A stretch of DNA of 64,000 bases from Candidatus Adlerbacteria bacterium (lineage in GTDB: Bacteria > Patescibacteriota > Minisyncoccia > Phycocordibacterales > SBAW01), in assembly GCA_026397405.1 (NCBI GenBank), contig JAPLUW010000001.1:43138-107137 (forward strand). Reading direction: 5' to 3'. Made by a program: the position numbers and the translations under genes. Below, piece by piece: positions 39,806 to 57,272 of this stretch. The notes below the pieces were generated by a model. It was not told the origin of the DNA. It was given only the letters and a program-made list of their open reading frames with translations, and ran no database searches. Within the stretch, counting starts at the first letter, position 1. Every line of letters starts with the position of its first letter.

Positions 39806-40327
39806 CTACAGAATACCACGAGTTAGAAGCTTCTTTTTTCTTGCGTATACATATAAACCTGAAGCCCCCATACAAAAACCCGCTACCCCTGATACCACAT
39901 ACCAGAACCACACGTACTTTGTAGTATCTCCAGCAGCAACAGGTATTTGAAACGTTGCCTCGCCTAGCGTATCGTCGGCTGTTTCGTACCGCACCGAAAC
40001 GCTGTACACGCCGGGTGCCGCAAACGTATACACCAACCCCGTTGGCCCCGCGTCCATGTGCGCAATGCCGGCTGCAAACAACGTACCATTGTCTTGGTAG
40101 ATACGTACCCACACATTACGGTAAGGGGCATCGCCCGGTGTTGGCCCGTTTTGATATATTTTAAAATCAAAGTAGGTTGAGTCACCTGCAACCACTGGGT
40201 CCGGGCTATACCCTACGTCTAGTAAGTACTTCCCCACTATCTGCTCTACGCTTTTGCCGGTTGTATGCGCAAAGGCAGCGTACGGTATAAGCAGCAGGCT
40301 AATACTTACAAGTAAAAACTTTTTCAT
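39806..40327 (-). CDS. Secreted protein with a C-terminal TM anchor, hypothetical.
   Basis: Signal peptide MKKFLLVSISLLLIPYAAFA and C-terminal WFWYVVSGVAGFCMGASGLYVYARKKK. Confidence 0.45.
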   Translation of the reverse strand: MKKFLLVSISLLLIPYAAFAHTTGKSVEQIVGKYLLDVGYSPDPVVAGDSTYFDFKIYQNGPTPGDAPYRNVWVRIYQDNGTLFAAGIAHMDAGPTGLVYTFAAPGVYSVSVRYETADDTLGEATFQIPVAAGDTTKYVWFWYVVSGVAGFCMGASGLYVYARKKKLLTRGIL

Positions 40328-41547
40328 AGCATATCGGGCGAATTTTCTTCCGAGCATTGCTTCTGCAAGTTTTCCGGCAACGCAGCACATAATTTCCCTC
40401 TGTTTACTGTATCACTTCCGAAGGTAAAGTTTGCGAGATCTGCCAAATATCCAAAACAACTCTCTCGATACAGTTTTCCTGCGCTTGTACAAACAGCAAC
40501 AGCGGCCGGGCCTTGTGTTCTGTCTTCTTCGACAAATGCCTCGGCAAGGATCCCAAAACATTCCTGCCCAAGTGCTCGCGGTAAGGCACTGCAGACTGCC
40601 GCTTGTTTTTGTGGGTCACTAAGTGATGTGCGTGCCCCTATAGTAAGTGCAGTGCGATAGCAATTTGTTTGTGTTGCGGAGTCTTTTACTGTTGTACAAA
40701 ATGCTTGTACACCCGCAGCAGTTTTTAAGTCGTCGCGGAACAGTGGCCATCCTTCACCAAAACATACACTGCGCTCTTCTTCTGTTTTGTACGTACCACA
40801 AAACTGCGCGAGCGTGTCGCGTGTAGGTTTAACCGGAAGCCGCGCGATAAGTTCGTAGTCTTCTGGTTCAAGCGGTTGGAAAATTTGCATAAACACGCCA
40901 GAGATACACGTTTGACTATAGTCTTCGCCATTAGTTTTTACGGCTATTTTTTTACAGTACGAAACTGCTCGGGGCATGTCGGCGCCCGTTACAAACGTGA
41001 GTACGTGCCCCATGCCGTGGTAACACATTGCGCGGTCGAGGCTTGTCGGGCTCCAGTTGGCAGCAGGTTCGCATGCCCGAGCCAGGTCAGGCTCAATTGC
41101 ATCAATTTGTTCGGGAGGTAGCTCCGCCGCATGGAACCTCCCGACGATAACACCGTGGATATACCCGTTGGAACACACGCTGTCCGGTGGGTTTTTATGC
41201 ATCAAGCTCACCCATGCACCCGGGTCCCTGGCAACTTCGTCTTGTCCTATGTTGTGCGCAAGCACGTGGCAAAAACGATACTTGGTATCTTGCGTTTGAA
41301 TTTCACGTATGACCGAAAACACATCTTCAACTGGAACTACATATAAAAGACGAGGCACGGTGCGTTCGTAGCATCCGCCACTGTCTGGTTTCTGTGCACA
41401 ATACCAAACAAAAAATGTGGCTGTCGTCCGAGCTAGTGACTGGGACAACCTAGTGTTTGCAGAAACAACAAGAAACAATGCCAGCATACCTACCAAGACA
41501 GCCGCAGCAACATGTACCCAGACATTATGTTTTTTTTGCATATTCAT
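40324..41547 (-). CDS. Member 1 of a paralogous Cys-rich membrane-anchored family carrying C-x-H...G and C-x-HG-x-GH motifs (unknown function).
   Basis: N-terminal TM. CHVLAHNIG and CYHGMGHV motifs. About 18 Cys. Confidence 0.6.
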   Translation of the reverse strand: MNMQKKHNVWVHVAAAVLVGMLALFLVVSANTRLSQSLARTTATFFVWYCAQKPDSGGCYERTVPRLLYVVPVEDVFSVIREIQTQDTKYRFCHVLAHNIGQDEVARDPGAWVSLMHKNPPDSVCSNGYIHGVIVGRFHAAELPPEQIDAIEPDLARACEPAANWSPTSLDRAMCYHGMGHVLTFVTGADMPRAVSYCKKIAVKTNGEDYSQTCISGVFMQIFQPLEPEDYELIARLPVKPTRDTLAQFCGTYKTEEERSVCFGEGWPLFRDDLKTAAGVQAFCTTVKDSATQTNCYRTALTIGARTSLSDPQKQAAVCSALPRALGQECFGILAEAFVEEDRTQGPAAVAVCTSAGKLYRESCFGYLADLANFTFGSDTVNRGKLCAALPENLQKQCSEENSPDML

Positions 41548-41552
41548 AAAGT

Positions 41553-42620
41553 TTAGTCGCGACCCGGAGAAGGTACTTCTGACCTACCTGAAGCTGCTTT
41601 GCCACACATTGTGTACCACGGCTCAATGAGACCTACGCATACGCCTCGTGCGCGGCTGCGAGCGGACACCTCAGCAAAAAAAGAGTCGGCAGCAGTTACT
41701 ATACAAGAGCTTCGTTCATCAGTGCGTGCAGACGCCAAAGCACATAACGTGATTGTTTCTGCAACGTCATAGTCTGCAGCCATAGCAACGATAGTACCTA
41801 CTCCTTGAAAACATTTTGTATGCACACTCATTGCTGTGCCGCTACACAATGTTCCTATACGAGTAACTATGTCCCTAGAACTCTTTCCTTCACTTTTAAA
41901 ACTCTGATACCACCATTGCGGCTGCCAATAATAGCAAACCTCCGCATCTCCACCCGTGAATATATTGCACGGATACTGTAGCCCGTCTGGCTCAACACTG
42001 CGTGGCGGCATACCGGAAAACGAATGCATGGTGCGCATATTAAATTCCATAAACACTCCTCCTGGGCAGCCCCCAATAGGGTCGCTGTATGCAAGCCGTT
42101 TACATACATCAAGGCTTTCTATCAACGCGTCGTCCGTGTACCCAAGATACGACTCGATACCATGTCCAAGACCGTGAGTACAGGAAAGTGCTTTTCCAGG
42201 ACCAAGTGCTTTAAAGCAAGCCTCGTTGAGTGCCTCAACAATAGTAAGACCTTCCTGTTGTATAGCACGCCCTAAAAATTCGTGGAAACAACCGTACGCA
42301 AACAAATCATCGCAGGCAGAAAGTCCCGTCACTCCTTCTTGTTCATATAAACTTCCTCCAAAAATATGTGCCATGGTGTGTTGGTCCCCAGGTGTCGAGC
42401 TTGCATAGGCGCGCAGAAATTCTGTATACGCAATTTTGCCACCTACTCGCGCTATTTCTCCCCTCCAAAATGTCCCGGCCTCTCTAAAACCTTCATTGGT
42501 ATACAACGCAAATACAGGCACCTTCAAGGGGGTTGCGCGCATATGCGAAACAACAATACTTCCAAGAACCAGTGTTATGCACAGTAGAGCAACACTGTGG
42601 TAGCCCAGTGGGTGTTTCAT
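41553..42620 (-). CDS. Member 2 of the Cys-rich C-x-HG-x-GH family.
   Basis: N-terminal TM. CFHEFLGRA and CTHGLGHG, then C..GVFMEF. Confidence 0.6.
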   Translation of the reverse strand: MKHPLGYHSVALLCITLVLGSIVVSHMRATPLKVPVFALYTNEGFREAGTFWRGEIARVGGKIAYTEFLRAYASSTPGDQHTMAHIFGGSLYEQEGVTGLSACDDLFAYGCFHEFLGRAIQQEGLTIVEALNEACFKALGPGKALSCTHGLGHGIESYLGYTDDALIESLDVCKRLAYSDPIGGCPGGVFMEFNMRTMHSFSGMPPRSVEPDGLQYPCNIFTGGDAEVCYYWQPQWWYQSFKSEGKSSRDIVTRIGTLCSGTAMSVHTKCFQGVGTIVAMAADYDVAETITLCALASARTDERSSCIVTAADSFFAEVSARSRARGVCVGLIEPWYTMCGKAASGRSEVPSPGRD

Positions 42621-43795
42621 TTTGATGTGTGGGGTGTATACCTGTCAGTAAGGACCTGTACATATGAAGTGCACGAGCGTTCTGCTACAGGGTCTTGCAC
42701 ACCAAGAAGCGCGCAGAAATGTGCGGAAATTTTTGGATCATTTTCTCCACCCCAATAGAGAGAATCTTGTATACTTTCAACACATAGTGTTGTGTCGTGC
42801 GCATTACCAGAACGTGAGCACCACGACGTCATACGTGCAAGTTCCTCATCGGTCAGTGTAGTTATGTCTCGCGCATCGCTCTGCCGTGCCCACCAAATAA
42901 ATTCTTTGCCAAACGACCCTATACACACGTCACGGTCCTGGTCGCCCACTGGAAGTGCGCGACACAGCGAAAAGGCTTTTGGAAATACCGCAGGGTCAGG
43001 ATGATTTTTGTCACCACCCGCAGCCTCAATTAAATGTGGTGTGACGTAGATGTAACAAAAAGCGCGAACTTCTTTTGGCATATACGGTTTGTCGCACGGA
43101 GAGAGCGGGTCGGCAGTGGTCAAATACTGTGGGCGCATCGTACTCCACACTTCGGGGCTATGCCCACCACCGGAAATTAATTCCATAATGGCACCGCCAA
43201 CACATTGGGGATATTCTTCGAACTGTGCGGCCCGAGTGCCCGTCTTTTTACACAGCGCTATCGTTTTTTCTAAATTGTAATTTTCGTATGCAAGCACGCC
43301 GTGGCCGAGACCATGAAAGCACATGGTGTATGCACCACTGCCGCCTGGAGCTTTTTTGCAGGATTCTGAAATATCGTCTAAGGCTTTTTCGCCATAGTCG
43401 AGGAGTAAACCCACCACAACGGTGTGCGAACAGGCATTGCGAAATTCGTCGGTGCAATATTGTATGGCGTCTTTGCCATATTGTTTATACAGCTCATCAC
43501 CGACCGTGTGCCCAAGCAAATGGATATCTGTTTGGGGAGGCAGAGGTGCACGACGTAATATTTCAAACGCATACAGCGCGCCCTTTTTTACTGCAATGTC
43601 TTTAAAGTATGAGTTTAGTTCACTAAAACTATCTTCATGATGCACAATGTCGGTCACTTCCGGGTAGGGCCTTATTGCACGCACATAATAGCCATATCCG
43701 ACAATGACACACAGCAAAAAAAAAGGGATGAGTTTTGGCAGCATGCGCCGTAATGTCATGGAAACACGCATGCTATTTAGTATACTTGAGTACAA
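42617..43795 (-). CDS. Member 3 of the Cys-rich C-x-HG-x-GH family.
   Basis: N-terminal TM. CSHTVVVGLLLDYG and CFHGLGHGV, then C.GGAIMEL. The start may be the internal ATG at 43759. Confidence 0.6.
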   Translation of the reverse strand: MYSSILNSMRVSMTLRRMLPKLIPFFLLCVIVGYGYYVRAIRPYPEVTDIVHHEDSFSELNSYFKDIAVKKGALYAFEILRRAPLPPQTDIHLLGHTVGDELYKQYGKDAIQYCTDEFRNACSHTVVVGLLLDYGEKALDDISESCKKAPGGSGAYTMCFHGLGHGVLAYENYNLEKTIALCKKTGTRAAQFEEYPQCVGGAIMELISGGGHSPEVWSTMRPQYLTTADPLSPCDKPYMPKEVRAFCYIYVTPHLIEAAGGDKNHPDPAVFPKAFSLCRALPVGDQDRDVCIGSFGKEFIWWARQSDARDITTLTDEELARMTSWCSRSGNAHDTTLCVESIQDSLYWGGENDPKISAHFCALLGVQDPVAERSCTSYVQVLTDRYTPHTSK

Positions 43796-45411
43796 TGCAA
43801 AACCTCAAAATGGCAGGACTATGCGGGATTATGTTGGTCCTGCTTGCCAGCATAGGCAGCCTGGCGCGCCTCCGTGAGATGAAGATGTCAGTGGGAAACC
43901 CTGCCGCATATGCAGAAGCCCACGCACTTGACCCACTGTTTGCATTCCCAGGATTTGAAACAGCGGACCTAAAAACCCAAATAGCAGCATTTAAAATATC
44001 TGCCTCTGTAGCACTTCCTGCCTTTCCCGAAGGTGCCTATGTGCGAGACCATATATACCCATTTCGTTTTTTAGATCTATTACCACAAACAGAAGAGGCT
44101 AGGAGGCAAGTGCTTGCAGAACCAACGCTGGAACATGCTACGTTGTATCACACACTACTTCTCTCACTTATTGCAGCACACAAGCAAGACTTGGAAGACG
44201 CCGTTGCCCTGCTCGCCCACGACATGTCGGGCTCACACTATGAATTGTTTAGCGGCCAAACAACCGCCACTCATATACGAAGTGTACTAACAGAAACACT
44301 CAAGACAGACACGAGGGCAGAAGAAAAAGAAAAGGCTCGGTTCGCATGTCTTAGCGGTACAACCCGAGCGTGCGAGTCGCTGACAAAACTACAGCTGCAA
44401 TTTGGACCGCATGATGGTGGCCAAAATCTGCCCCCCACCGAAAGCGTTCTTAACAGCGTGCTAGAAAACCGTGATGCACTTACAGTTGCCTATCCATCGA
44501 TTGATACTCGACCCCTTATTTCGCTTACACAGTCTTCCTGCTTTACCAACTCACCTGCTTTTTTTGCAGTTGTTGGAGGAGTGTCGCGACTTTCAAACTT
44601 ACCGACGACACAGGCGGTCTATTTGAGTGACTTATATTTTGAAGATGTGCGAACCAGCACACAACCTTTCTACGCAGCTCTTCGGAAAGAGGGCGACTCT
44701 TTTACCTACCAACCATTCCGCGCATACTTGTGCCCCGACGCAGGTATAGATTTTGGAACAACAGTAACTATACAACGTGCATACGATACGCTGAGACAGA
44801 ATCCATTCACACCTACGGCACCCATCTCTCCCCTTTTCGAAACTCTGGTGAGCGCACAAAAAAACTTTACAGAAGCGCCTTTTCTTACAGACACTGCATA
44901 CGATGCATTTATTAGGGCGGCGACAGAAACTGTTCGCGGCACACCTAAGGACATACTTACAGAGAGGCTCGGCGGACAAACAGAAGTTCTGCGGCTTATA
45001 GAACTTGTAACAGAGGCCGAGACAAACAGTGCTGACTTTGCCGGCACCATTGGATATTTTGACGACCTCCAAATTGGCGGCTCTATTATCTACAATTTGC
45101 AGTCGAGCCCTACTATTGTGTACTTTATCTCCCGCGGTGGCCTGTCGCAACTCTATGCGCTCAACAACAAAACTATTTCTCCCACACCAGAACCTCTAAC
45201 TACACAAAGAGCAGCGCCCGCCGACCAGATATCAAAAGGAGAGGGAGTGCCGTATGTTTCGTATATGCAGACACACGACACTGAACCTGCGTTTTCCGAT
45301 ATCCGCACGTTACTTACACGAGACATTCCTGCGCGCGCACGAGTACTTTCCCCATCACTTACACAACTACAACAAAAACGTGCAGAATATGTTCGTGCGC
45401 GTACGCACTAA
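43795..45411 (+). CDS. Membrane-anchored extracellular hypothetical protein (about 538 aa).
   Basis: N-terminal TM (AGLCGIMLVLLASIGSLA), no recognisable domain. Start at 43795 or 43810. Confidence 0.5.
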   Translation: MQNLKMAGLCGIMLVLLASIGSLARLREMKMSVGNPAAYAEAHALDPLFAFPGFETADLKTQIAAFKISASVALPAFPEGAYVRDHIYPFRFLDLLPQTEEARRQVLAEPTLEHATLYHTLLLSLIAAHKQDLEDAVALLAHDMSGSHYELFSGQTTATHIRSVLTETLKTDTRAEEKEKARFACLSGTTRACESLTKLQLQFGPHDGGQNLPPTESVLNSVLENRDALTVAYPSIDTRPLISLTQSSCFTNSPAFFAVVGGVSRLSNLPTTQAVYLSDLYFEDVRTSTQPFYAALRKEGDSFTYQPFRAYLCPDAGIDFGTTVTIQRAYDTLRQNPFTPTAPISPLFETLVSAQKNFTEAPFLTDTAYDAFIRAATETVRGTPKDILTERLGGQTEVLRLIELVTEAETNSADFAGTIGYFDDLQIGGSIIYNLQSSPTIVYFISRGGLSQLYALNNKTISPTPEPLTTQRAAPADQISKGEGVPYVSYMQTHDTEPAFSDIRTLLTRDIPARARVLSPSLTQLQQKRAEYVRARTH

Positions 45412-46695
45412 CTATCTAGACACTTGAAGTCGTTTGCGTTTGTCTGTTGGTAATGTGCGTAATACTTCTACCGGCTCCGCAGTACATACAAGTGGCGAAA
45501 CGACACCGAGCTCCACAAGGTCGGCATATGTTCGTGTAGAACTTACCTGGATAGCACGCGCAAGCATGTCACTGTGTATATAAGGAGCGTGGTCAGTATA
45601 GAGCACGGTAGAAAGGCCGGGAGGGCTAATGCGTTCATTCCAGACAGCAGTAAAGTCTGCCACTTTGTATGGGAGTTTCAGCACAGCTTCTTCAAGCACA
45701 GCACTGCTCAGCCCCCCGTATGGCAATAGTTTTATCCTGTCCAAACCAACACGGCCGAGTATTTCAAACATGGGTTCTGTACTGCCACACGAACAGAGCC
45801 CGTGCTTGCGCACCACGGCGTAGTCGCCCGTGCGGTAGCGCACAAGAGAAAACGCCATGGGAGTAAGTGCTGTTATCACCACTTCGCCTTCAGCACCCTC
45901 CACCTGAGGAACTACATGGCCAGTTTCTGGGTCGACAAGTTCTAACTGGTACGTTGGGAACACGTGCATATAGTTTGGCGACACCGTGAGGTAACTCGGG
46001 CAGGTGTAGCCCACCGTTCCGTGGGCATCAACAGTCGCATACACAGCAGCAATAGTTGCATGCGGAAATGCTTCAACCAACTCTCTGCGTAAAGGCTCTG
46101 TCACGCGCTCACCCATTAGCACAATACGTTTCATACGCGCAGCAAGCGGCGTTCCTGCGACGTAGTGTCCAACGCCGGCAAGCGGTGAGGGGAACGAATA
46201 CATCGAGTCAACTCCTGCGGCTTCGGCACGTGCAAATGTTTTTTCCTGGTCGCGATAGTCGCCCGACACTGCGACGTGCCCACCCTCCTCTACTACATAT
46301 GTTTCGTGTACAGCATTTGACGGCGAATAAATGAGAATAGAATACGTATCTTCTTTTTTAAAATAGGGTCCAAAAAAACGGCCCGCAAGTGCTTCTTCCC
46401 CGCTAAAACCAAGCGACTTCCGGTAGCGCATTAGCTCTGGCTCTTCCGCCAGAGGAAAGGCAATCACTCCACGACCCGACGACCCAGATGTTGCCCGCAC
46501 AAAATGTATCATTTCTTTCGGGATAAAAATGCGGTCAAAAAAAGGAGTCGCGTCTATTTCCTCGCGTGTGAGCAGGGGGATGCCAGCAAGATCTTTTTCT
46601 ATATATGTTTTATAGTCGCTGCCATATTTGCGACGATAAAAATCCGAATACGGATTTAAAATAGCAAACTGCAGTGCGCGAGAAAGTAGTGTCAT
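45412..46695 (-). CDS. Adenylate-forming enzyme of the PaaK / coenzyme F390 synthetase-like family (ANL superfamily).
   Basis: P-loop-like ATSGSSGRGV and the adenylation motif YRTGDYAVV. 427 aa, typical PaaK size. Confidence 0.68.
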   Translation of the reverse strand: MTLLSRALQFAILNPYSDFYRRKYGSDYKTYIEKDLAGIPLLTREEIDATPFFDRIFIPKEMIHFVRATSGSSGRGVIAFPLAEEPELMRYRKSLGFSGEEALAGRFFGPYFKKEDTYSILIYSPSNAVHETYVVEEGGHVAVSGDYRDQEKTFARAEAAGVDSMYSFPSPLAGVGHYVAGTPLAARMKRIVLMGERVTEPLRRELVEAFPHATIAAVYATVDAHGTVGYTCPSYLTVSPNYMHVFPTYQLELVDPETGHVVPQVEGAEGEVVITALTPMAFSLVRYRTGDYAVVRKHGLCSCGSTEPMFEILGRVGLDRIKLLPYGGLSSAVLEEAVLKLPYKVADFTAVWNERISPPGLSTVLYTDHAPYIHSDMLARAIQVSSTRTYADLVELGVVSPLVCTAEPVEVLRTLPTDKRKRLQVSR

Positions 46696-47004
46696 GGTAG
46701 TGGGTCAAACACGACCACGCCCCCAGGCGGCGTGTACGGAGAAATTTCGCCGGACGTAGTGACAATAAGCCAACCTTTAATGTGCGAGAGAATTCCAAGG
46801 CTTTCGAGATGTGCCACAAGCTCATACAGGAGTGTGTCTGTTGTCACAAGTGCTTAACAACAATATTTCGTGCACGGGCCTCCACATATGCAGGGCGATG
46901 TAGTTGCAACACTGGGGGCAACAACAGGCCAAGACCCCTGGGGCGCACAGTATCAAGCAACCCGCCCAATGCTTTCCATTCCTGTTCGCCAGACATTAGA
47001 TACT

Positions 47005-47193
47005 CTAGTACACCCCGCCGCACCATACGTAGTAGATCTTCTCTGTAGATTTTCCTTGTGTTTGTTTTTCTGTTTCCTTGTCTTGAGAAGGGGTAACGGG
47101 ACAGAAGAGTTCTTGTTTTTCTTTATGTGCAACAATCCCAATTGTCAGAACAGGAAGGAAAAACCCAAGCCCTATAAGAAATTTCTTCATCAT
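47005..47193 (-). CDS. Small signal-peptide protein (62 aa), possibly co-transcribed with the upstream paralog gene.
   Basis: MMKKFLIGLGFFLPVLTIGIVA..., 33 nt downstream of the stop of the 47227..47979 gene. No strong RBS. Confidence 0.25.
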   Translation of the reverse strand: MMKKFLIGLGFFLPVLTIGIVAHKEKQELFCPVTPSQDKETEKQTQGKSTEKIYYVWCGGVY

Positions 47194-47226: not shown

Positions 47227-47979
47227 TTAGTGGAATAGCCCACCAAAAAATGACGCAACTGATCCAAAGAAATTACTGTTAAAACTTCCAAATGACGTTT
47301 TTTTGTATCCGGCTGGGTAGATATACTCCCCTTTCTTTACTAGTGTTGTATCGGTCTTTTCGACTTCCGGGACTATTGGATTGGCGAGGATGTAGGGGTC
47401 GTGGCGAATGCCGGTGACTTGCCAGGAGACTCGGGCCCCTGGGGTGCCACCCGCGATGCCGAACTGGTTATTTTGCACCTCGCGACTTATATAGAGGTTC
47501 GGCATCGGCTCCCCGAGCGGCCGCACTAAGTAACGATAGTCTTTATTCAACACTTCAAAATACTTTGGGAGGGAGACCGCAGCTTCCCCGTTAGCATCCA
47601 ATGTTGCGATACCATCGTAGATGTTTTTAACGTCCGGCGACTCAACGAACGAGTGGTAGAGAAGTTTGTTAGCGGGGTCGAGGGGGTGGTCTATGACAAA
47701 CGAACCTGATCCTTTGGAAATAGAGCCTGTTACTGCAACAGTTTTCGATGCAGTAGCATTTTTTGTAAAGGTTGTCTGATACGTTGACTGTGAATAGTAC
47801 GTACTTTGTGAGTAATACGTTGACTGCGAATAGTACGTTCCTTGGTAGTACGGCTGCGAATAATATGCCGACTCAGCATAGTAGTCTCCTTGTGAATACG
47901 CATGGGTAGCATGCGGAATAAGCACGCAGGCAAGCAGCGAGAACGCCGAGACCGTATAGGTATATATATTATTTCTCAT
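47227..47979 (-). CDS. Secreted protein, paralog A of a triplicated family (conserved FVIDHPLDP...HSFVESPDVKNIYDGIATLD domain and identical C-terminal 40 aa).
   Basis: Signal peptide. Tyr/Gln/Ser-rich repeats (YYSQSTYYSQSTYYSQSTY). C-terminus ARVSWQVTGIRHDPYILANPIVPEVEKTDTTLVKKGEY. Its start ATG overlaps the paralog B stop in ATGAGAAATAA. Confidence 0.65.
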   Translation of the reverse strand: MRNNIYTYTVSAFSLLACVLIPHATHAYSQGDYYAESAYYSQPYYQGTYYSQSTYYSQSTYYSQSTYQTTFTKNATASKTVAVTGSISKGSGSFVIDHPLDPANKLLYHSFVESPDVKNIYDGIATLDANGEAAVSLPKYFEVLNKDYRYLVRPLGEPMPNLYISREVQNNQFGIAGGTPGARVSWQVTGIRHDPYILANPIVPEVEKTDTTLVKKGEYIYPAGYKKTSFGSFNSNFFGSVASFFGGLFH

Positions 47980-48529
47980 AGCCTTCAAATAAATACTCCC
48001 CTTTCTTTACTAGTGTTGTATCGGTCTTTTCGACTTCCGGGACTATTGGGTTTGCGAGGATGTAGGGGTCGTGGCGAATGCCGGTGACTTGCCAGGAGAC
48101 TCGGGCTCCTGGGGTGCCTCCTGCAATAGTAAACTGATTTTTTGTTTTGTCTGCCCCCACTTTCAAATATATATTTGGGTCAGCATGCTCAAGCGGGAAA
48201 AATTGATATCTAAAATCTTTATTGAGCGCGTCGAAATACTCTGGCAGCTGTACTATTACCTCTCCCTTGTCATCCAATGTCGCAATACCATCGTAGATGT
48301 TTTTAACATCGGGCGACTCGACGAACGAGTGGAAGAGCAGTTTGTTAGTAGGGTCCAGTGGATGGTCTATAACAAACGTACCTGAGCCTTTAGAAAGAGC
48401 TCCGGTGATTGCAAGATTTCCCGCAAATTTTACGTTGCCTACCAACTTCACCCCGAACGCAATGGTAGGTACGCACAACAACAGGAATGCGAAGATATGT
48501 TTTGTATATTTGAAATTATTATTTCTCAT
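47969..48529 (-). CDS. Secreted protein, paralog B of the triplicated family.
   Basis: Same conserved domain and identical C-terminal block. Its start overlaps the paralog C stop in the same ATGAGAAATAA junction. Confidence 0.65.
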   Translation of the reverse strand: MRNNNFKYTKHIFAFLLLCVPTIAFGVKLVGNVKFAGNLAITGALSKGSGTFVIDHPLDPTNKLLFHSFVESPDVKNIYDGIATLDDKGEVIVQLPEYFDALNKDFRYQFFPLEHADPNIYLKVGADKTKNQFTIAGGTPGARVSWQVTGIRHDPYILANPIVPEVEKTDTTLVKKGEYLFEGYEK

Positions 48530-49091
48530 ACCCTTCAAATAAATACTCCCCTTTCTTTACTAGTGTTGTATCGGTCTTTTCGACTTCCGGGACTATTGGA
48601 TTGGCGAGGATGTAGGGGTCGTGGCGAATGCCGGTGACTTGCCAGGAGACTCGGGCCAGGGGTACTCCTCCTGATATTTTAAATTGTATCGCACCAAAGA
48701 GGCCAAACCATCGGCGAGCAACTTCTTTTTTCAAAAATAAATTCGGCATAGACGCTCCAATAGGTGTCGCTAGATATCTAACATCTTGATTCAACGCTAG
48801 AAAATAGTCGGGTAGATTGATGGTTGCTTCACCTTTGTCGTCGAGCGTCGCAATACCATCGTAGATGTTTTTAACATCTGGTGACTCAACGAATGAGTGA
48901 AAGAGTAATTTGTTAGCTGGGTCGAGCGGGTCGTCGATAACGAAGGTGCCGGAGCCTTTGGAGAGTGCACCTATGACACTCGCGCTGCCAGTTACAGACA
49001 CAGCTGTGGTAAGGGTAACGGCCTGCGCGCTCGAGATAAGCGCGAAAAACAGCCCCAAACTACCGACAAGTCTGTAGAGAGAAAATCTCAT
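48519..49091 (-). CDS. Secreted protein, paralog C of the triplicated family.
   Basis: Signal peptide MRFSLYRLVGSLGLFFALISSAQA and the same conserved domain and C-terminal block. Confidence 0.65.
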   Translation of the reverse strand: MRFSLYRLVGSLGLFFALISSAQAVTLTTAVSVTGSASVIGALSKGSGTFVIDDPLDPANKLLFHSFVESPDVKNIYDGIATLDDKGEATINLPDYFLALNQDVRYLATPIGASMPNLFLKKEVARRWFGLFGAIQFKISGGVPLARVSWQVTGIRHDPYILANPIVPEVEKTDTTLVKKGEYLFEGYEK

Positions 49092-49156
49092 ATACACAAG
49101 TATATCATGAGCGTTTTGCCACAATTTTATAGGGGAAAATCGAGTATACTTTCCAC

Positions 49157-50629: not shown

Positions 50630-50633
50630 CTGT

Positions 50634-51518
50634 ATGCAGCGTATACTAAAAATATTCTTGTTCCTTGGAGGAGTGCTAGTAGTTTTTTTTCTCTACCATA
50701 CACTACACTCACCTACTGTAGTTGAAAATGCGAGAGTGAAGTATTGGGAGAGGCGTATACATTCCATAGGTGCCACTGGGGCTTACAATGAACTCCTATC
50801 GAGCACTACTGAACATTTTGAAGGTCACTATTTTGGCACTGCGCTGTATCAAGAACAAGGAATTTCTGGAATGACTGTGTGCGATGACAAACTACAGTAT
50901 GCATGTTTACATGAAATGTACGGCCGCGCACTTGCGGAATATGGTCTCTCTATAATAAAAAAGCTTGATACCGTATGCACGGAGAGCGCAGACCCTCTTG
51001 TGTGCGAACATGGGATAGGACACGGTCTGGTGGGATATTTTGGATACACCAAAACCTCAGCACTACAAAGTGTAGCCGCGTGCAAAAGTATTTCTGAACA
51101 TGGGGATGTGGTGGGAGCCTGCGAGTCTGGTTTGTTTATGGAATATTTTAATCGGACTATGCTTCCAGGCACGGAACCCTTTCCTGTATCAGAGGCGGCG
51201 CTGTATGCACCATGCGAGGAACTTGCACTTGGGGAACATGACATGCCGCAATGCGTATTTGAATTTCCTCGTCTGTGGTTTTTGTCACTATTTAAGAACG
51301 AAAGAACCCCTGAACATTTGAAGCAGCTCGGCCTGTATTGCCAGAAATATGACTCTATCCCCGCCCTACGCACAGTGTGTGCGCGCGGAGCAGCCGAAAT
51401 AGTTGTACACGCACAAACTCTAGAGGAATCAAAAAAAATCTGCAGCCAAATATTTACAGATATAGACAAAAAAAATCTCTGCGAGCTCCAAGTAGAAAGA
51501 TTGTTTAATCTCCAATGA
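50634..51518 (+). CDS. Member 5 of the Cys-rich C-x-HG-x-GH family.
   Basis: N-terminal TM. CLHEMYGRALAEYG and CEHGIGHGLVGY, then C.SGLFMEY. Confidence 0.6.
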   Translation: MQRILKIFLFLGGVLVVFFLYHTLHSPTVVENARVKYWERRIHSIGATGAYNELLSSTTEHFEGHYFGTALYQEQGISGMTVCDDKLQYACLHEMYGRALAEYGLSIIKKLDTVCTESADPLVCEHGIGHGLVGYFGYTKTSALQSVAACKSISEHGDVVGACESGLFMEYFNRTMLPGTEPFPVSEAALYAPCEELALGEHDMPQCVFEFPRLWFLSLFKNERTPEHLKQLGLYCQKYDSIPALRTVCARGAAEIVVHAQTLEESKKICSQIFTDIDKKNLCELQVERLFNLQ

Positions 51519-52756
51519 ACACAAAAAAACGCCTGCGGCACATATTCTGGGTAGCACTACTTACAGTAATTTTTGGTGTTGGAATATATTTTTTTAGCCA
51601 ACAGTCCTTCGTATACCATGCGACCGTATGTGACTACTCTCATACCTCTGCGCCGGACAAAATTGAATGTTGGTATGGACTGCTCGATACATCTCTCGCA
51701 ACAGGAGGTGCAGCAAACATGCTCCACGACTACGCATACTTATATAGTCATTACCCCAATATATTAGTTCCCGAAAATTGCCATGCCGACGCCCATTGGA
51801 TGGGAGACCAGATGTACTCTGCACTACTCCACAGTGGAGAGAGTCTGGAAACAGTCGACTTCCCCGAGACCGCGAATGTTTGTACGTTTGGTGTTCCTCA
51901 CGGTTTTTTCATGCACTTGTTTGCAGACCATCCAAACGCACCATTTGTAACTGCAACATGTAGTAGTTTTGAAACACGTTTCTCGAATATATTTCCAACA
52001 ATAAACGTACAGTGTTACCACGCTGCCGGGCATGGGTTTGTCCTTGCGCATGCACACGACACATCCAAGGACGCACACCAGCTTGCAGCAGATACGCTCG
52101 GGCAATGCGACACTCTGCCCAACACACTGACAGACATAGAACGTCAGACATGCTACCGGGGTGTATTTACGGCCTTACTTGAATGGGCTGCCCAAAAACA
52201 ACACGGCCTTTCCTTTGACAAGTTGCACCCGTTTGCACTCTGCACAACGCTCACCAACTCATGGAAGCGCATGTGTTACGCAGGCGTTGCCGACCGGTTT
52301 TTTAGAGAAGCTAGTCTTACGGTACCTTCCCTTATAGAACACATTGCCCAGGTAGAAGATCCCTCACTGCGCGTCCAGGCGTTTCGACCGGCAATGCGAG
52401 TACTTATTTTGCGAGCCATGCCGCACAACTCTTACCTGTCTCTTATACCTGCATGCGCAACTGTCTCAAAAGAGTTATTTGTTGCGTGTATTACTATATT
52501 CCCGAGCGCACTTTTTACCGGAGGTTTTCCAGAGCAAGAATATCCAAAAGCACTTGCCTTGTGTGCGTCAAACCAAATACACGCACTGGACGCTGAAAAA
52601 CTTTGTTATCTTTCTGTAGCAAAACAGCTAGCCCTCTTTTACCCACCAGAAAAACTACAGGCCTTCACTGACCCTCACGTACAGCAAGCAATTGCACAGC
52701 TGACAGAGGCGGGGAAATTAACCACGACCGAATTAGACTTGCCCAACATCCACTAA
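51515..52756 (+). CDS. Member 6 of the Cys-rich C-x-HG-x-GH family (divergent: CYHAAGHGF).
   Basis: N-terminal TM. CHADAHWMGDQMY and CYHAAGHGFV, then C.RGVF. 4-bp ATGA overlap with the previous gene. Confidence 0.58.
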   Translation: MNTKKRLRHIFWVALLTVIFGVGIYFFSQQSFVYHATVCDYSHTSAPDKIECWYGLLDTSLATGGAANMLHDYAYLYSHYPNILVPENCHADAHWMGDQMYSALLHSGESLETVDFPETANVCTFGVPHGFFMHLFADHPNAPFVTATCSSFETRFSNIFPTINVQCYHAAGHGFVLAHAHDTSKDAHQLAADTLGQCDTLPNTLTDIERQTCYRGVFTALLEWAAQKQHGLSFDKLHPFALCTTLTNSWKRMCYAGVADRFFREASLTVPSLIEHIAQVEDPSLRVQAFRPAMRVLILRAMPHNSYLSLIPACATVSKELFVACITIFPSALFTGGFPEQEYPKALALCASNQIHALDAEKLCYLSVAKQLALFYPPEKLQAFTDPHVQQAIAQLTEAGKLTTTELDLPNIH

Positions 52757-52766
52757 CTACAGAATG

Positions 52767-54227
52767 TTATTTAGCCTTCACCGCAGCCAAAAGATCGCTT
52801 GCTTCGGTATAGGTCGGTCGCAGCGCCAGGGCTGCTTGTAGTGTGTCTCCGGCCTGCTGCTTTTGACCAGCTAATATATAAAGTTGCGCTTGGAAAAATA
52901 GTACGGAGGGATCGTTGGGCGACTCTGCGTGCGCGCGTTCGAATGCCGCCTTACTTTCGTAAAATACGTCTTCGCTTGGCGCAAGCGACATTTCTTCAGC
53001 AAGAGTGATACCGAGTAATTTCCAACTTTGTGCATTCGCGCCCTCGGTTACTGTTGCTGCACGTGCATAGATGCTTGCACGATGAAACAGCTGCCCCACC
53101 TGCGTCTGCGACGCAGCCGCATTACCCAGTGCATGACCACTTGAGCGGAGTATCTGTGCGAGCAAGCGGTCAGTTTGTCCTGTAGGCGAAAGTGCATAGG
53201 CATATTCCCCCGCACTGCGTGCGTGCAAAAGGTCCTGCTGCTGCATGCTTGCATATGCGTAAAAATAAAATGCTGCTGAAAGTCCGAGATACAAAACACC
53301 AACAGTAAGTACCGCTATAACTCCAAAAAGTATGGTTCGTAGCAAAGGACGTACACGAAGACCGATAGAATCTTCATATCTACACGAACCAAACGCGACT
53401 GCCACTGCAAGCAAAAGCGGCGCTGAAGGTTCAGCATAGACGAGCAGTGCGAGAGCAAAAAAAATAACGGCGACTGAAGCGAGCACAACCACACGACGAC
53501 GCATTGTATATGTCCGTGTAATGACCTGCAAAAATTCTTCAGCAACAGCTGAAAAAAAACTAAGGGTAAACAATAGCACCGCTATAGCCCCACATTCTAC
53601 GAGCAACGTGGGGAGCAGGCCGCTGCCGACGGAAAAATCTTCGTTCCAAAAAGGGGTGGCGAGCACTTCCCCTGGGCGATATTTTTGCCACGCATAAGTA
53701 AACGCGCTCGGCCCTATGCCGGCTACAAGTACTTTGCCACCGAGGTCCGTGTACGCCGCTGACTCTACCCGTAGTGTTGTTGTAAGTGACGGTCGCACAA
53801 GCTGCTCGGTGCGCAGATACGGATACACCAAAAGACCTACAAGCACACAGGTTGATGCGATAAAAAGACCCTGACGCACCACGCGCGAAAAGCCACCTAC
53901 GAATAACGCAAGGATACACATAAGGACTATAAAGCCCCCCGACGTCATGTCGAGTGCAAAGCCAAAGAATGCATGCAAAAAATTTCCAGAAAAAATCGTA
54001 GTACACAATACTACAAACACAAATGCGACAAGCAGCCACTGCGAAGGCTTCCACTCCTTGGGGTGCGGGACACCCGCGTAGAGTATAGACAAACCACACA
54101 GGTACAAGGCACATAGACTTGCCCCAATTGACGCCATCGTGTCTGCATAGGTCTGTCCGATACCTACATAGAGAAGGAATACAGCAATCACACTTATGGC
54201 AGGAACATACAAGCGGAATGCACGCAT
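52767..54227 (-). CDS. Polytopic membrane protein with a C-terminal TPR-like region (possible O-antigen-ligase/Wzy-like protein).
   Basis: About 10-12 predicted TM helices followed by a soluble C-terminus with TPR-like helical repeats (LFFQAQLYILAGQKQQAGDTLQAALALRP). Confidence 0.4.
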   Translation of the reverse strand: MRAFRLYVPAISVIAVFLLYVGIGQTYADTMASIGASLCALYLCGLSILYAGVPHPKEWKPSQWLLVAFVFVVLCTTIFSGNFLHAFFGFALDMTSGGFIVLMCILALFVGGFSRVVRQGLFIASTCVLVGLLVYPYLRTEQLVRPSLTTTLRVESAAYTDLGGKVLVAGIGPSAFTYAWQKYRPGEVLATPFWNEDFSVGSGLLPTLLVECGAIAVLLFTLSFFSAVAEEFLQVITRTYTMRRRVVVLASVAVIFFALALLVYAEPSAPLLLAVAVAFGSCRYEDSIGLRVRPLLRTILFGVIAVLTVGVLYLGLSAAFYFYAYASMQQQDLLHARSAGEYAYALSPTGQTDRLLAQILRSSGHALGNAAASQTQVGQLFHRASIYARAATVTEGANAQSWKLLGITLAEEMSLAPSEDVFYESKAAFERAHAESPNDPSVLFFQAQLYILAGQKQQAGDTLQAALALRPTYTEASDLLAAVKAK

Positions 54228-54252
54228 AGAGTTCTAGTATACTGCACAGTAT

Positions 54253-54690
54253 ATGAGAGCACTGGCCGCACTAACCCTAGTCCTGGGTATTACACTTGGG
54301 GTGTGTGCAGGAATATATATATGGCCGGTAGTGTCACCAAAACAGGTAGGCGGCTCGTGGGCCCTTGCATCTCCACACAGCGCAACGCTGCCCTACCCTT
54401 TGTCACTTCAAGGAACAATTACTGACGTTGGACCAGAAACGTTTCTTTTGAATATACCGACAGAGGGTGACTCAGCCAAAAAAAAGGTCCGCATACGGTA
54501 CGACGTTGACACGCGCGTACTAGTACGAGACCCGCAAAAAACACCGGGCGGAGTTATCAGTAGCTCTCGACTTCTTGTAGCTCCAAAGGAACATAGTATT
54601 ATTGACGGAGAAAAAGTCCGCGCAGACATATGGATTACTGGAGACGCGTCGGTGCCATATGCACTTATACTATTACAGTCGTCGTTTTAA
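54253..54690 (+). CDS. Small membrane-anchored hypothetical protein.
   Basis: N-terminal TM (ALAALTLVLGITLGVCAGIYIW), 145 aa. Confidence 0.45.
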   Translation: MRALAALTLVLGITLGVCAGIYIWPVVSPKQVGGSWALASPHSATLPYPLSLQGTITDVGPETFLLNIPTEGDSAKKKVRIRYDVDTRVLVRDPQKTPGGVISSSRLLVAPKEHSIIDGEKVRADIWITGDASVPYALILLQSSF

Positions 54691-54694
54691 CCTC

Positions 54695-55150
54695 ATGAAT
54701 ACAAAAGACTCACTAACCATGCCTCTTCTTTTTATCTGCGCATTCTTGCTTGCAGGAAGCTGTGTGGTAAATATGCTGCAATTTCAACAAGCTCAAAACC
54801 TGTCTGTAAAAAAAGCGCAAACGAACCTCCTTCTTAAAATTCCTGATGTGCAGAGAATCGCAACAATAGTAAAAAATAACTTTGACGAACGGTGGGTGCG
54901 TATCTCATATACAGATGGAGAGGGGCAGACCGAACAACTACAAGCATGGGTTACTTCTGCAACTGTCATACAACGTACGCAAGCAGGAGCAGTATCAGGA
55001 GTGACTGAACGTGCCTCCGTAGAAGACATCGACCAGAAAGATCTCCGCGTAGGTGAACCTATCTATATAATTATGCGCAATTCGTCCGACCAACAACGTC
55101 TGGAAGCAAGTCGTATTACTGTCGGCGACCTGCTCCCTGTTTCTCTATAG
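54695..55150 (+). CDS. Small membrane-anchored hypothetical protein, possibly paralogous to the preceding gene.
   Basis: ATG at 54695 lies 4 nt after the previous stop. N-terminal TM (MPLLFICAFLLAGSCVV). Confidence 0.45.
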   Translation: MNTKDSLTMPLLFICAFLLAGSCVVNMLQFQQAQNLSVKKAQTNLLLKIPDVQRIATIVKNNFDERWVRISYTDGEGQTEQLQAWVTSATVIQRTQAGAVSGVTERASVEDIDQKDLRVGEPIYIIMRNSSDQQRLEASRITVGDLLPVSL

Positions 55151-55699
55151 AGAAAACATAGGTGCCAACCACCCGCGGCGGCGTTCGTGTTTGAGCCATC
55201 GATAGTCCCAGTGCCACGCACCGCTTCCTTCCCTGCTCAGTATTAAAAAGTATCGGTACCCGCCGTCGTGACACATAACAGTACCCGGAACTTCAAACCA
55301 GGTGATGCCGTGGTTGTCGTAGAGCCAGCGCAATGTTTTTTGACCTTCTTCCAAAAACAATCCTATTCCAAATGCAAAGTCAGGGCGCACGTCGGGGAAC
55401 ACTTTTAAGCGTTCTAGTTTCTGCTCGCCATCGATAGAGTCTTCGCCATCTTTAAAACCATGAACAAATTTCATGCGGCTAAAATCAAAAGCGTTCATTG
55501 CAGTTGCTCGAGCGTCTTGGTCTTCTTCGCCCTCAAGCCCTTCCCCATTCTTCGGACCTTTCCACACAGTCCATTCGTCACCAAGAAGGTCAGTTACGGT
55601 CGGAAGCTTCGTGCGATCAACTCTAAACACAGGACCTTCCGTTATAACAACTACAGGGTCTGTGGCGGTCAACTCGTCATGATGAGATACATGGTCCAT
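55145..55699 (-). CDS. Hypothetical cytoplasmic protein (184 aa).
   Basis: Continuous ORF between two plausible genes. Acidic middle (EGLEGEEDQD). No recognisable domain. Confidence 0.4.
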   Translation of the reverse strand: MDHVSHHDELTATDPVVVITEGPVFRVDRTKLPTVTDLLGDEWTVWKGPKNGEGLEGEEDQDARATAMNAFDFSRMKFVHGFKDGEDSIDGEQKLERLKVFPDVRPDFAFGIGLFLEEGQKTLRWLYDNHGITWFEVPGTVMCHDGGYRYFLILSREGSGAWHWDYRWLKHERRRGWLAPMFSL

Positions 55700-55721
55700 A
55701 TGTACCTATTGTACTCATGCC

Positions 55722-57272
55722 CTACTGTGGTGTACAGAGTTTGTCCGTTCCGGGGATGTCCGCCACTAATGCACATGCAGCGGCACGGGCTACTTCGCCA
55801 TAGTTATTTATAAGCGTCGTAACAAGCGTGTTGGCACAGAGCGTTTTTTCACCTGACGTGAGTGTACGTACGTGACACAACTCCGCGCCTCGCGCACCTT
55901 CAGTTCCCGGCGCGCCGTTAAAGACAACTCCGCGCAGAAGGCCAGCAATACAATATGAATGGAGCGTTGTATCAACAACAGAGGCACACAACCCTATAAG
56001 TTTTTTATTCGACATGTCGACATTGTTTGCGGCCGAAACAAACGCAACACTTGTTATTGCAGAAAACATGTACGTCCCATCTAACCACGTGCGCGCAGCA
56101 CTCATAACCGACTGAAGTGAGGTGTCAGTATTGTGGTTAGCAATAACAAGTGTTTCTTTTGCCATTTCCCATACACATGCATCCTTCTGCCATGTTTCCT
56201 GCAAAGGTGCGCACAACGCAAATGGGTGGTCGAGCGAAAAAACATCTGTATAGACAGTCTGTAGATTTTGAACATTGACCCATGCTTTAAATACGTCGAA
56301 CGCGCCGTCGGCACAGCGGAACTTCCCTTCTGGGGAAGGCATCGCGGCACACTCGGCAACTCCCATGTTCAGAAGAGTCTGTAGGTTCCTACTGTTGTTA
56401 CTCAAGTCTGGTCGTGTTGTAAGGAGATATTCCATGACACTGTGCCCAATGCCGTGCATACACTGCAGACCTGCGACAGTTTTTTCGCCAACGCGCTTGG
56501 CTTCCGCCGTACAAAATGCAAGTGCAGGCTGTATGTCACCATGCCTTTCCATAAGAAAACTTTCAAGATAGCCGTGATAAAACCCTTGGCCGCAATACAT
56601 AGTGTTAGCCGCGGGAAGATGGTCGCCATATTTTTTATACGCCATAAGTCCCAAGTCGTGTAAAAACGAATGGCACTCTGGGCGGAACTCCGGATACTTT
56701 TCATATACAGAGGCAACCTCATCCATCGCGCCACTCAAACCTTTTTTATCGAGCGCAAGCAAAATGTGCTGGCGGTAACATGCTGCACGGCCACTTTGTT
56801 CAGGTTCATCACAGACCCCAAGCACATCATATATTGCTTCTCCTTTTGCTCCTGGCGGGACAACAATAATTACACCGATGTCGAGCCCTATGTGGTCGTG
56901 AAAGCTCCAGTGTCCATCTTTATCAAATGTAAAACTCCAGGCACTTGTTGCCCCAACGGGTCCTTTAGAATCAAATGCCGAATATATAGTATGGAACGGG
57001 TGCAAGTCCGACGCAGGCCAAAAAGAGTTTCCTGCTGTTGTACGAAATACAACTGTTGTATTGCGGCTGATATAGATTTCTGACGGAACAAAACCGTTTT
57101 TTGTGAGAGTAATTGTTACCGTGCTCTTTCCCGTCAAGTCGAGCGGACCCCGATGCATATAGGTGTATATGCCGTATATACACAAGCCAGAGACCACCAT
57201 TAAACACACAAAAAATATCGCGTACTTCGAGCGCATGCAGTCCAGTGTAGCGCATGCTATCCTCTTACGCAT
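55722..57272 (-). CDS. Member 7 of the Cys-rich C-x-HG-x-GH family, with an N-terminal degenerate cupredoxin-like domain.
   Basis: N-terminal TM. TVTITLTKNGFVPSEIYISRNTTVVFRTTAGNSFWPASDLHPFH...WSFTFDKDGHWSFHDHIGLDIGVIIVV. CHSFLHDLG and CMHGIGHSVMEY. Confidence 0.62.
   Translation of the reverse strand: MRKRIACATLDCMRSKYAIFFVCLMVVSGLCIYGIYTYMHRGPLDLTGKSTVTITLTKNGFVPSEIYISRNTTVVFRTTAGNSFWPASDLHPFHTIYSAFDSKGPVGATSAWSFTFDKDGHWSFHDHIGLDIGVIIVVPPGAKGEAIYDVLGVCDEPEQSGRAACYRQHILLALDKKGLSGAMDEVASVYEKYPEFRPECHSFLHDLGLMAYKKYGDHLPAANTMYCGQGFYHGYLESFLMERHGDIQPALAFCTAEAKRVGEKTVAGLQCMHGIGHSVMEYLLTTRPDLSNNSRNLQTLLNMGVAECAAMPSPEGKFRCADGAFDVFKAWVNVQNLQTVYTDVFSLDHPFALCAPLQETWQKDACVWEMAKETLVIANHNTDTSLQSVMSAARTWLDGTYMFSAITSVAFVSAANNVDMSNKKLIGLCASVVDTTLHSYCIAGLLRGVVFNGAPGTEGARGAELCHVRTLTSGEKTLCANTLVTTLINNYGEVARAAACALVADIPGTDKLCTPQ

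Follow-up and report, generated by a model that had tools for sequence, protein, structure and literature searches.

In this study, we analyzed a 64,000-nucleotide stretch of DNA from Candidatus Adlerbacteria (assembly GCA_026397405.1, contig JAPLUW010000001.1, positions 43,138 to 107,137), hereafter called the window, with a focus on seven genes (P1 to P7) for cysteine-rich, membrane-anchored proteins. The seven proteins belong to one family, the ectodomain of which is an alpha-solenoid that is stapled by disulfides and carries five histidines, each conserved in about 98% of the members. The family genes are closely linked to those of two partners, a CopC-like protein (c1) and a cupredoxin-like protein (c0). 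We regard the helical family and this three-component arrangement as new; the function that we infer for them is more tentative. We propose that the family and its two partners might form a new extracytoplasmic metal system, in which copper would be the most likely metal.

A reading made from the DNA alone (hereafter the sequence-only reading) had delimited seven open reading frames (ORFs) of one architecture. All seven were found, and each matches a family hidden Markov model (HMM) built from 85 homologues, none of them from the window. When this HMM was searched against the 232 window ORFs of at least 70 amino acids, exactly P1 to P7 matched (E 2e-151 to 6e-13) and no other ORF did so even at E <= 10. 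Since these E-values derive from non-window homologues, the similarity of the seven ORFs is far beyond chance. In the window the genes are laid out as two three-gene runs plus a solo member. The first run, on the reverse strand, begins with P3 (42617..43795; TTG start; transmembrane (TM) anchor plus helical ectodomain; E 4e-65). It is followed by P2 (41553..42620; E 1e-22), the ATGA start of which overlaps the P3 stop (42617-42620), and after a 5-nt gap by P1 (40324..41547; E 2e-151), which serves as the reference for residue numbering. A third ATGA overlap couples P1 with the downstream c1 gene (39806-40327). The second run, on the forward strand, consists of P4 (49157..50629; E 4e-18), P5 (50634..51518; E 4e-13), which follows after a 4-nt gap, and P6 (51515..52756; E 6e-13), the ATGA start of which overlaps the P5 stop (51515-51518). 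P5 is the shortest member (294 amino acids); an alternative start would be GTG 50556, and ATG 50634 agrees with the family alignment. P7 (55722..57272, reverse strand; E 2e-16) stands alone. Thus, the two tightly overlapping operons described before are borne out by two ATGA overlaps among family genes, but two junctions are gaps and P7 belongs to neither run. The rest of the window is devoted to housekeeping functions (RNase R, SMC, DnaE, ThrRS, GyrB, PheT, GAPDH and pentose-phosphate genes).

Each of the seven proteins possesses a single strongly hydrophobic segment, which is N-terminal, and none further along. The cysteine counts from P1 to P7 are 18, 15, 15, 15, 12, 14 and 20, in agreement with the N-terminal anchor and the 12-20 cysteines claimed earlier. 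In a MAFFT alignment of the seven, the other copies are 13-20% identical to P1, and 15 columns are invariant (H94, H98, G101, C125, C159, C175, H177, G180, H181, C198, C214, G217, C250, C262 and C364).

As the sequence-only reading had anticipated, the family cannot be assigned to any named one. The helical domain of all seven has no match to Pfam, NCBIfam, PADLOC or PHROGs models. Outside this domain, the N-terminal extensions of P4 and P7 weakly match cupredoxin models, and the seven proteins have no other library match. A sequence-profile search of the PDB with the family gave one chance match only (E 0.38), and no description of the family was found in literature searches. A word-indexed search returned 91 related proteins from Adlerbacteria, Giovannonibacteria, Nomurabacteria and other Patescibacteria, all of them annotated as 'hypothetical' and devoid of Pfam domains. 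One other Adlerbacteria protein shares 88% identity with P1. In an exhaustive profile search of 1.84 billion cluster representatives (clusters counted at 50% identity), 7,270 clusters matched at E <= 1e-3, 5,853 at E <= 1e-10 and 1,502 at E <= 1e-30. Related loci were collected by scanning one genome per GTDB species with a P1-type sub-alignment, which gave 79 loci in which P1 is present by construction. All loci that bear a specific lineage name belong to Patescibacteria; Parcubacteria/Paceibacterota lineages predominate, and Microgenomates and Gottesmanbacteria are also represented. Among third-party assemblies with the family, many are labelled 'uncultured Candidatus Saccharibacteria', and a few carry the names Gammaproteobacteria or Verrucomicrobiia. 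The latter loci (L043, L045, L054, L059, L063, L072 and L073, 'uncultured Gammaproteobacteria'; L074, 'Verrucomicrobiia') hold typical family arrays, with up to 14 family copies in L063, and these labels probably reflect mislabelling or mis-binning. If they are correct, the family reaches beyond Patescibacteria.

An AlphaFold2 model of P1 (predicted local distance difference test, pLDDT, 94.6) shows an ARM/HEAT-like alpha-solenoid. Fold searches with this model gave no specific solved relative, only generic solenoids such as importins and designed repeat proteins. Profile-profile comparison of alignment segments revealed internal repeats: repeat 3 (residues 167-208, with H177 and H181) matches repeats 6, 7 and 8 with a probability of 59-89% and E-values down to 2.5e-6, and repeat 6 matches repeat 8 at 93%. 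Therefore, the ectodomain is a solenoid that arose by duplication of a two-helix unit of ~34-45 residues, with about nine such repeats per ectodomain. No Sel1 or TPR match was obtained with Pfam, and the repeats are seen only by self-comparison.

Conservation was assessed in 646 non-identical members (locus ORFs plus database sequences) that were aligned to the family HMM. Histidine conservation reaches 98% for H94 and H98, 98.5% for H131, 98.6% for H177 and 98.3% for H181, and all five histidines occur together in 622 of the 646 members. Motif conservation in a proper multiple alignment, a check that had been proposed for this family, therefore held up. The two motifs described before fared differently. 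The first, C-x-H-x(3-5)-(L/M)G, had been taken as one site and mixes two. Its invariant element is H-x3-H-x2-G (H94/H98), which among the seven copies is directly preceded by a cysteine only in P1, P4, P6 and P7; in paralogs 2, 3 and 5 the strings that had been noted (CFHEFLG, CSHTVVVG and CLHEMYG) fall on the third invariant histidine, H131. All seven copies contain the second motif, C-x-H-(G/A)-x-G-H, which is near-universal in the family (C175 99.7%, G180 99.8%, besides H177 and H181). The trailing C(K) and C-x-x-G-x-F correspond to C198 and to C214/G217, and both C198 and C214 are conserved in 100% of the members. Position 220 is Met in 80% and Asn in 14%. The core residues in P1 are H94, H98, H131, C175-x-H177, G180, H181 and M220, and their equivalents are H81, H85, H113, C147-x-H149, G152, H153 and M191 in P2, H92, H96, H124, C159-x-H161, G164, H165 and M204 in P3, and H61, H65, H93, C124-x-H126, G129, H130 and M169 in P5. 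The remaining copies have another residue in place of Met: P4 (H177, H181, H212, C256-x-H258, G261, H262) has Asn306, P6 (H90, H94, H129, C167-x-H169, G172, H173) has Thr219 and P7 (H201, H205, H233, C271-x-H273, G276, H277) has Asp326.

The cysteines vary in pairs. C93 and C125 are both present in 456 members and both absent in 178, with not a single member retaining only one (phi 1.0). For C284 and C296 the corresponding numbers are 518, 117 and 4 (phi 0.98), and for C50 and C59 phi is 0.83. Paired loss is also seen within the window, where P2, P3 and P5 lack both cysteines of the first pair and P4, P6 and P7 both of the second. This strict pairwise gain and loss implies that the cysteines are disulfide staples and not metal ligands. 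There is one such staple per repeat, and it connects the end of a short helix with the beginning of the long helix that follows. In P1 the nine predicted pairs are 50-59, 93-125, 159-175, 198-214, 250-262, 284-296, 319-330, 353-364 and 387-398. The proposal of an extracytoplasmic, disulfide-rich scaffold is thereby substantiated, and cysteines as copper-thiolate ligands, as in a Csp-like store, are ruled out by the same co-variation. No Dsb genes are located in the window.

What remains of the paired His/Cys metal site suggested by the sequence-only reading is its histidine half, since the cysteines are disulfide partners and a His-based site is the most economical reading of five histidines at ~98%. 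In the AlphaFold2 model, histidines at i/i+4 lie on helices 94-107 and 169-186 and H131 lies on helix 128-138; these are three consecutive long helices, and G217 and M220 lie on a fourth (211-223). By their positions in the sequence, H94/H98, N127/H131, H177/H181 and G217/M220 would form a 2 x 4 residue grid on four inner helices. Conserved glycines on these helices (G101, G128, G132, G180 and G217) would permit tight helix packing. The putative site is thus a histidine cluster with a Met or Asn neighbour. Among the 646 members no acidic residue reaches 75% conservation; only His, Cys, Gly and Met220 are conserved family-wide. Such a ligand set would suit copper better than zinc or iron hydrolase chemistry. 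Searches with the helical domain gave no match to P1/S1 nuclease, zinc phospholipase C, hemerythrin, tyrosinase, DOHH or imelysin. The six histidines, four-helix bundle and fold match of type-3 copper proteins (tyrosinase, hemocyanin) were not found in the family, and neither were a Glu or Asp conserved in at least 75% of members or a fold or sequence match of the kind expected for a hemerythrin- or DOHH-like di-iron centre.

The partners were found by clustering the non-family ORFs of 82 non-redundant loci. Copper-type partner genes in the operons strengthen the reading of a His-based metal site. Both partners are of recognisable kinds, a probable CopC-like fold and a cupredoxin fold, yet divergent and unannotated. 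The c1 gene of the window (39806..40327, reverse strand) encodes a 173-residue protein that is 100% identical to the NCBI hypothetical protein NT019_00425 of Candidatus Adlerbacteria. A predicted signal peptide ending in A-F-A is followed by histidine (His21), the presumed start of the mature protein, by a beta-sandwich of eight strands and by a C-terminal TM helix. This cluster (cluster 1) is represented in 31 loci; the median distance to a family gene is 22 bp, and as a rule the c1 gene immediately follows such a gene, frequently with c0 as a neighbour. All members have a signal peptide that ends in a small residue with an invariant histidine directly behind it, then a beta-sandwich and, at the C-terminus, a TM helix. 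In 75 sequences, the histidine after the A-x-A-type predicted cleavage site and D54 are invariant, and there is no second invariant histidine. The protein was tentatively assigned a CopC-like fold, with the Cu/Fe binders P19/FtrA, Tp34, HftA and PmoD also listed and generic Ig-like domains scoring nearly as well; sequence similarity to CopC or DUF1775 was not detected in Pfam or the PDB. A free N-terminal histidine is a hallmark ligand of CopC and of histidine-brace copper sites (PMC7529816, PMC10952591).

The second partner, c0 (cluster 0), has about 130-150 amino acids and a TM anchor. Free c0 is present in 63 copies in 40 of the 82 loci; its median distance to a family gene is 28 bp, and it lies on the same strand in 60 of 63 cases. 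As a fused domain, which is always N-terminal, it occurs in 70 of 440 family ORFs, so that c0 is found free or fused in 53 of the 82 loci. Several searches identify it as cupredoxin-like: the free c0 of locus L027 matches PF13473 with 31 bits (cut-off 27), database fusions match Cupredoxin_1 (E 4e-12 and 6e-12) and Copper-bind (E 2e-8), and a c0 profile of 31 sequences matches amicyanin over the whole domain (E 2.7e-8). In the amicyanin alignment the invariant His71 falls on the copper ligand His53 and the invariant Asp106 on the copper ligand Cys92. With no cysteine in its ligand loop, c0 lacks the His-Cys-His-Met ligand set of type-1 sites; further near-invariant histidines are present at positions 74, 105 and 107. 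Hence c0 has kept the canonical metal site, which cannot be blue copper and is at best a type-2-like His/Asp site. A comparable case is FtrB, a Cys-less cupredoxin that binds Cu2+ via Asp and His (PMC11966278). Cupredoxins of the candidate phyla radiation (CPR) have been discussed only as presumed electron carriers to NirK (PMC5581439, PMC12931201). A c0 subgroup (L013 6798-7292, L022 4491-4958, L028 5329-5736 and L034 5290-5760) contains a 10-residue insert with two cysteines, ...YPEK..(A/T/S)DCLGSSFD(S/A)C..., between the HP-x-H and FD motifs, which probably forms a further disulfide or provides another ligand loop.

Within the window, fused domains that align with c0 are found in P4 and P7. 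The domain of P4 (49238..49510, forward strand) lies between the TM anchor and the helical domain, gives weak Cupredoxin_1 and plastocyanin matches and has partly degenerate ligands (WPLSDPHSSQ ... FHDR). The N-terminal domain of P7 (56859..57131, reverse strand) has the full ligand set (WPASDLHPFH ... FHDH). Fusion is associated with a change in the helical domain itself. Of 341 unfused copies 279 have Met220, against only 5 of the 71 that are fused to a cupredoxin, among which Asn dominates (Fisher p 4e-34, uncorrected for phylogeny). A difference between the architectural classes at this position is expected if residue 220 belongs to the functional site. Gene fission or fusion between free cupredoxins and Asn220-class genes found no support, as free cupredoxin genes were not enriched beside unfused Asn220 copies (5/44 vs 17/277).

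The same two partners raise the question of an iron function, i.e., a surface module for ferrous-iron oxidation or capture like EfeUOB or FtrABCD. In such a module c1 would take the place of P19/FtrA, c0 that of FtrB or of EfeO's Cup domain, a Cu-dependent ferroxidase, and the helical His domain that of the metal-binding helical part of EfeO. It would accommodate the c0 match to PF13473, which we take to be the EfeO-type cupredoxin family, and the order of domains in P4 and P7, cupredoxin and then helical, which parallels EfeO. FtrB is moreover a Cys-less Asp/His cupredoxin with ferroxidase activity and a partner of FtrA-P19 (PMC11966278). However, conserved carboxylates, a normal requirement of Fe(III) sites, are missing from the helical domain, c1 is devoid of the His/Met copper ligands of P19, and the c0 profile is nearest to classical amicyanin, with FtrB and EfeO not among the 60 PDB matches listed. 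Furthermore, no FTR1/EfeU-type permease was detected in the window or in the 30 most recurrent neighbour clusters of the 82 loci (with Pfam run on representatives of some of these clusters only), and the multi-TM neighbour at 57765-58724 has no Pfam match. We therefore regard an iron system as unlikely.

The number and age of the gene copies bear on function as well. A survey of related genomes for copy number and co-occurring genes, as had been recommended, showed that multi-copy arrays are usual and that two partners recur. When all ORFs of the 82 loci were searched with the family HMM, each locus, of up to 21 kb, was found to contain 1-14 family genes, which usually run in one direction and overlap. 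Arrays of 3-14 genes are the norm, and single-copy loci lie mostly on short contigs. Family genes in the loci were typed by their best match among the seven window proteins, and the order P3, P2, P1 on one strand recurs across many lineages. Median identities to the orthologues in other lineages are 47% for P3, 33% for P2 and 35% for P1. In contrast, the window copies are 21-31% identical pairwise in reliable alignments, the closest pairs being P2/P5 (31%, E 6e-43) and P4/P7 (29%, E 6e-49). Orthologues are thus more similar than most copies within the window, and therefore the seven copies are old, distinct types. Recent local duplication was rejected on these grounds, and the 'sevenfold expansion' of the sequence-only reading gives way to ancient paralogs whose order is shared across Patescibacteria. 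Database proteins with 2-7 copies per chain mostly have one N-terminal TM helix, and most of their later copies have none, so these chains are real fusions. Their existence suggests that family copies act together physically.

Arrays of this size could also be taken for a metal buffer or detoxification layer, in which His-rich solenoids would sequester copper or zinc at the surface, with c1 and c0 as chaperones and no catalysis. Many copies per genome would increase capacity, CopC- and CrdA-type proteins are classically resistance determinants (PMC9182242), and the partner evidence is identical to that for the copper system proposed above. But five histidines per ~350-residue ectodomain amount to a very low capacity, no efflux ATPase is linked, and ancient paralog types in a fixed order, together with a precisely conserved site geometry, suggest a specific function. 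A mere buffer thus seems distinctly improbable to us.

A tethered, stapled solenoid, a set of five histidines plus Met or Asn without carboxylates, and the partners c1 and c0 are together most simply covered by a metal system. In the mechanism that we envisage, each protein would be tethered outside the cytoplasmic membrane by its one N-terminal helix, and the histidine grid, as the functional heart of the protein, would hold one or two transition-metal ions, most likely copper. The membrane-anchored, CopC-like c1 would capture Cu(II) via its free N-terminal histidine, and the Cys-less His/Asp cupredoxin c0, free or fused, would supply metal or give redox service. The helical proteins would then be the metal-bearing end users, and c1 and c0 chaperone and/or redox partner. 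The ancient paralogs (P3, P2, P1 and others) probably work next to one another at the cell surface or assemble there into a hetero-complex. Rather than a mere metal relay, we favour a redox enzyme with substrates on the envelope or the host surface. It is tempting to speculate further that the His5(+Met) grid holds two coppers, like the His3/His2Met sites of uncoupled binuclear copper monooxygenases, that the CopC-like chaperone loads them and the non-blue cupredoxin gives electrons, and that multi-paralog arrays oxidatively modify or degrade host or envelope molecules. In this specific form the proposal is doubtful and, on balance, unlikely to be correct.

Several observations weigh against a copper system in general. 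A regular solenoid puts the equivalent positions of four successive helices in a ladder and not at a single point, and the cupredoxin domain of P4 has its degenerate ligand set. No copper ATPase, CopZ or CopD-like gene was found in the window or among the recurrent neighbours, and to our knowledge few cuproenzymes have been described in Patescibacteria. In addition, in the Wzy_C fusion P0164 the family domain stands where similar proteins have TPR, which hints at a binding-scaffold role. Potentially, then, the stapled solenoid is a non-catalytic scaffold or adhesin that binds protein, glycan or lipid on the cell's own envelope or on a host, in the manner of TPR, ARM and Sel1 repeats. In this case the histidine cluster would have a structural role (e.g., as a Zn clip) or form a patch that senses ligands or pH, and the divergent paralogs would represent different specificities. 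The ARM/HEAT-like fold class, with matches only to binding-type solenoids, is consistent with a scaffold, as are the placement of the domain after Wzy_C in P0164 (where the window protein 52767-54227 has TPR), the high divergence of the paralogs outside the core and the Ig-like and giant repeat surface proteins among the neighbours. However, binding scaffolds rarely hold five histidines at ~98% over thousands of clusters amid drift elsewhere. The tight linkage to a ligand-retaining cupredoxin and to a CopC-like protein that has histidine at its N-terminus, and the co-variation of residue 220 with cupredoxin fusion, would also be left unexplained. We consider a pure scaffold rather unlikely for these reasons, and retain the extracytoplasmic copper system as our working proposal.

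Further genes surround the family arrays. On the reverse strand, an Ig-like surface protein (38848..39819; Bact_surface_Ig-like E 1.3e-7) overlaps the end of c1 by 14 nt and is a neighbour in 17 loci; its membership in the system is uncertain. The same uncertainty applies to c2 (43735..45411, forward strand), a TM-anchored protein of ~555 residues that is transcribed away from P3, is a neighbour in 24 loci and has no Pfam, NCBIfam or PADLOC match. The gene for a PaaK-like/DVU_1553-family AMP-dependent ligase (45412-46695, reverse strand; E 6e-20, below cut-off; 22 loci) is convergent with c2 and abuts it, and the two may be a separate conserved surface-modification pair. Three tandem, slightly overlapping paralogous genes on the reverse strand (47227-47988, 47969-48538 and 48519-49124) encode secreted proteins of 189-253 amino acids, which share a common core, GSGSFVIDHPLDP.NKLL.HSFVESPDVKNIYDG..., and a near-identical C-terminal stretch, SWQVTGIRHDPYILANPIVPEVEKTDTTLVKKGEY; at the DNA level, blocks of 183-236 nt are 71-88% identical. 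This family occurs in 21 related loci, often near arrays, and has no Pfam, NCBIfam or PHROGs match.

The 486-residue multi-TM protein of 52767-54227 (reverse strand) carries C-terminal TPR, and its membrane part weakly resembles the Wzy_C (O-antigen-ligase) region of P0164 (GIGPxxF, E 0.004); Pfam gives no Wzy_C call in the window protein. In P0164 the family helical domain is located C-terminal to the Wzy_C membrane domain. Adjoining P7, two overlapping forward-strand genes for membrane proteins (57163-57768, 201 amino acids; 57765-58724, 319 amino acids, multi-TM) have no Pfam or NCBIfam match and occur together in 8 related loci. Further along the window, 59632-63852 (reverse strand) encodes a Ser/Thr/Gly-rich surface protein of 1,406 amino acids without a Pfam match and with relatives in 11 other loci; the repeat 'GGLSTSTAAVVGNIPYYSG...LAGSIAYSKL(A/S)LTGAI(L/V)NADLAGSIA' occurs in it three times. 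Large proteins are also encoded beside a five-gene family array on a 742-kb contig (L003 1-5388; JGI 3300020219). Upstream lie genes for a protein of >3,200 residues and for one of 876 residues with PG_binding_1, Laminin_G_3, Ig-like and Hint (intein-like) domains, and downstream those for a sulfatase and a 495-residue spermine-synthase-like protein.

Patescibacteria (CPR) account for a large share of bacterial diversity and are host-dependent organisms with tiny genomes, most surface proteins of which have no known function. The family described here fills seven genes of one 64-kb window and up to 14 in one locus, and comprises thousands of clusters without a name, a domain model or a solved relative. 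With a defined architecture, a candidate active site and two partners of copper-handling types, it now constitutes a testable system. Uncharacterised families are common in the CPR, and part of the interest hinges on the metal-centre hypothesis. If a copper centre is present, these organisms would need a metal, and possess an extracellular chemistry, with which they are not credited at present, and bioinorganic chemistry would gain a new protein scaffold. An oxidative metalloenzyme would mean unsuspected extracellular redox chemistry in minimal, supposedly fermentative episymbionts. Even as a binding scaffold only, the family would still be a major conserved surface component of Parcubacteria.

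Among known systems, several resemble parts of the arrangement. The Hcp proteins (Helicobacter cysteine-rich, Sel1-like) are secreted and consist of alpha/alpha repeats, with one disulfide stapling each repeat, and their Cys-pair periodicity is similar to that of the family. The family differs from them in its Cys spacing of 11-16 residues, by which helix B is connected with helix A of the following repeat; in Hcp proteins there is neither a conserved histidine cluster nor a partner of the cupredoxin or CopC-like kind. The HEAT-repeat enzyme DOHH has a di-iron centre held by His-Glu motifs on its repeats (PMC9117371). Therefore, a solenoid metalloenzyme with ligands at equivalent positions of successive repeats has a precedent (PMC9117371). 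However, DOHH is cytosolic, eukaryotic/archaeal and free of disulfides, and uses His-Glu pairs for iron, whereas the family has histidines only (plus Met or Asn), no conserved carboxylate and no sequence or fold-search match to DOHH. Compared with CopC/PcoC/CrdA and with YcnI, which shares the membrane anchor, c1 lacks the second invariant histidine and the Met-rich loop. It is linked to the helical His family and not to a CopD-type protein, and cop, pco and ycn operons contain nothing that corresponds to the helical family. FtrB (Cup-II) is like c0 in its cupredoxin fold without the type-1 Cys and with Asp and His at ligand positions (PMC11966278), and EfeO, with its N-terminal Cup domain (Cup-I), has a cupredoxin-then-helical layout similar to that of P4 and P7.

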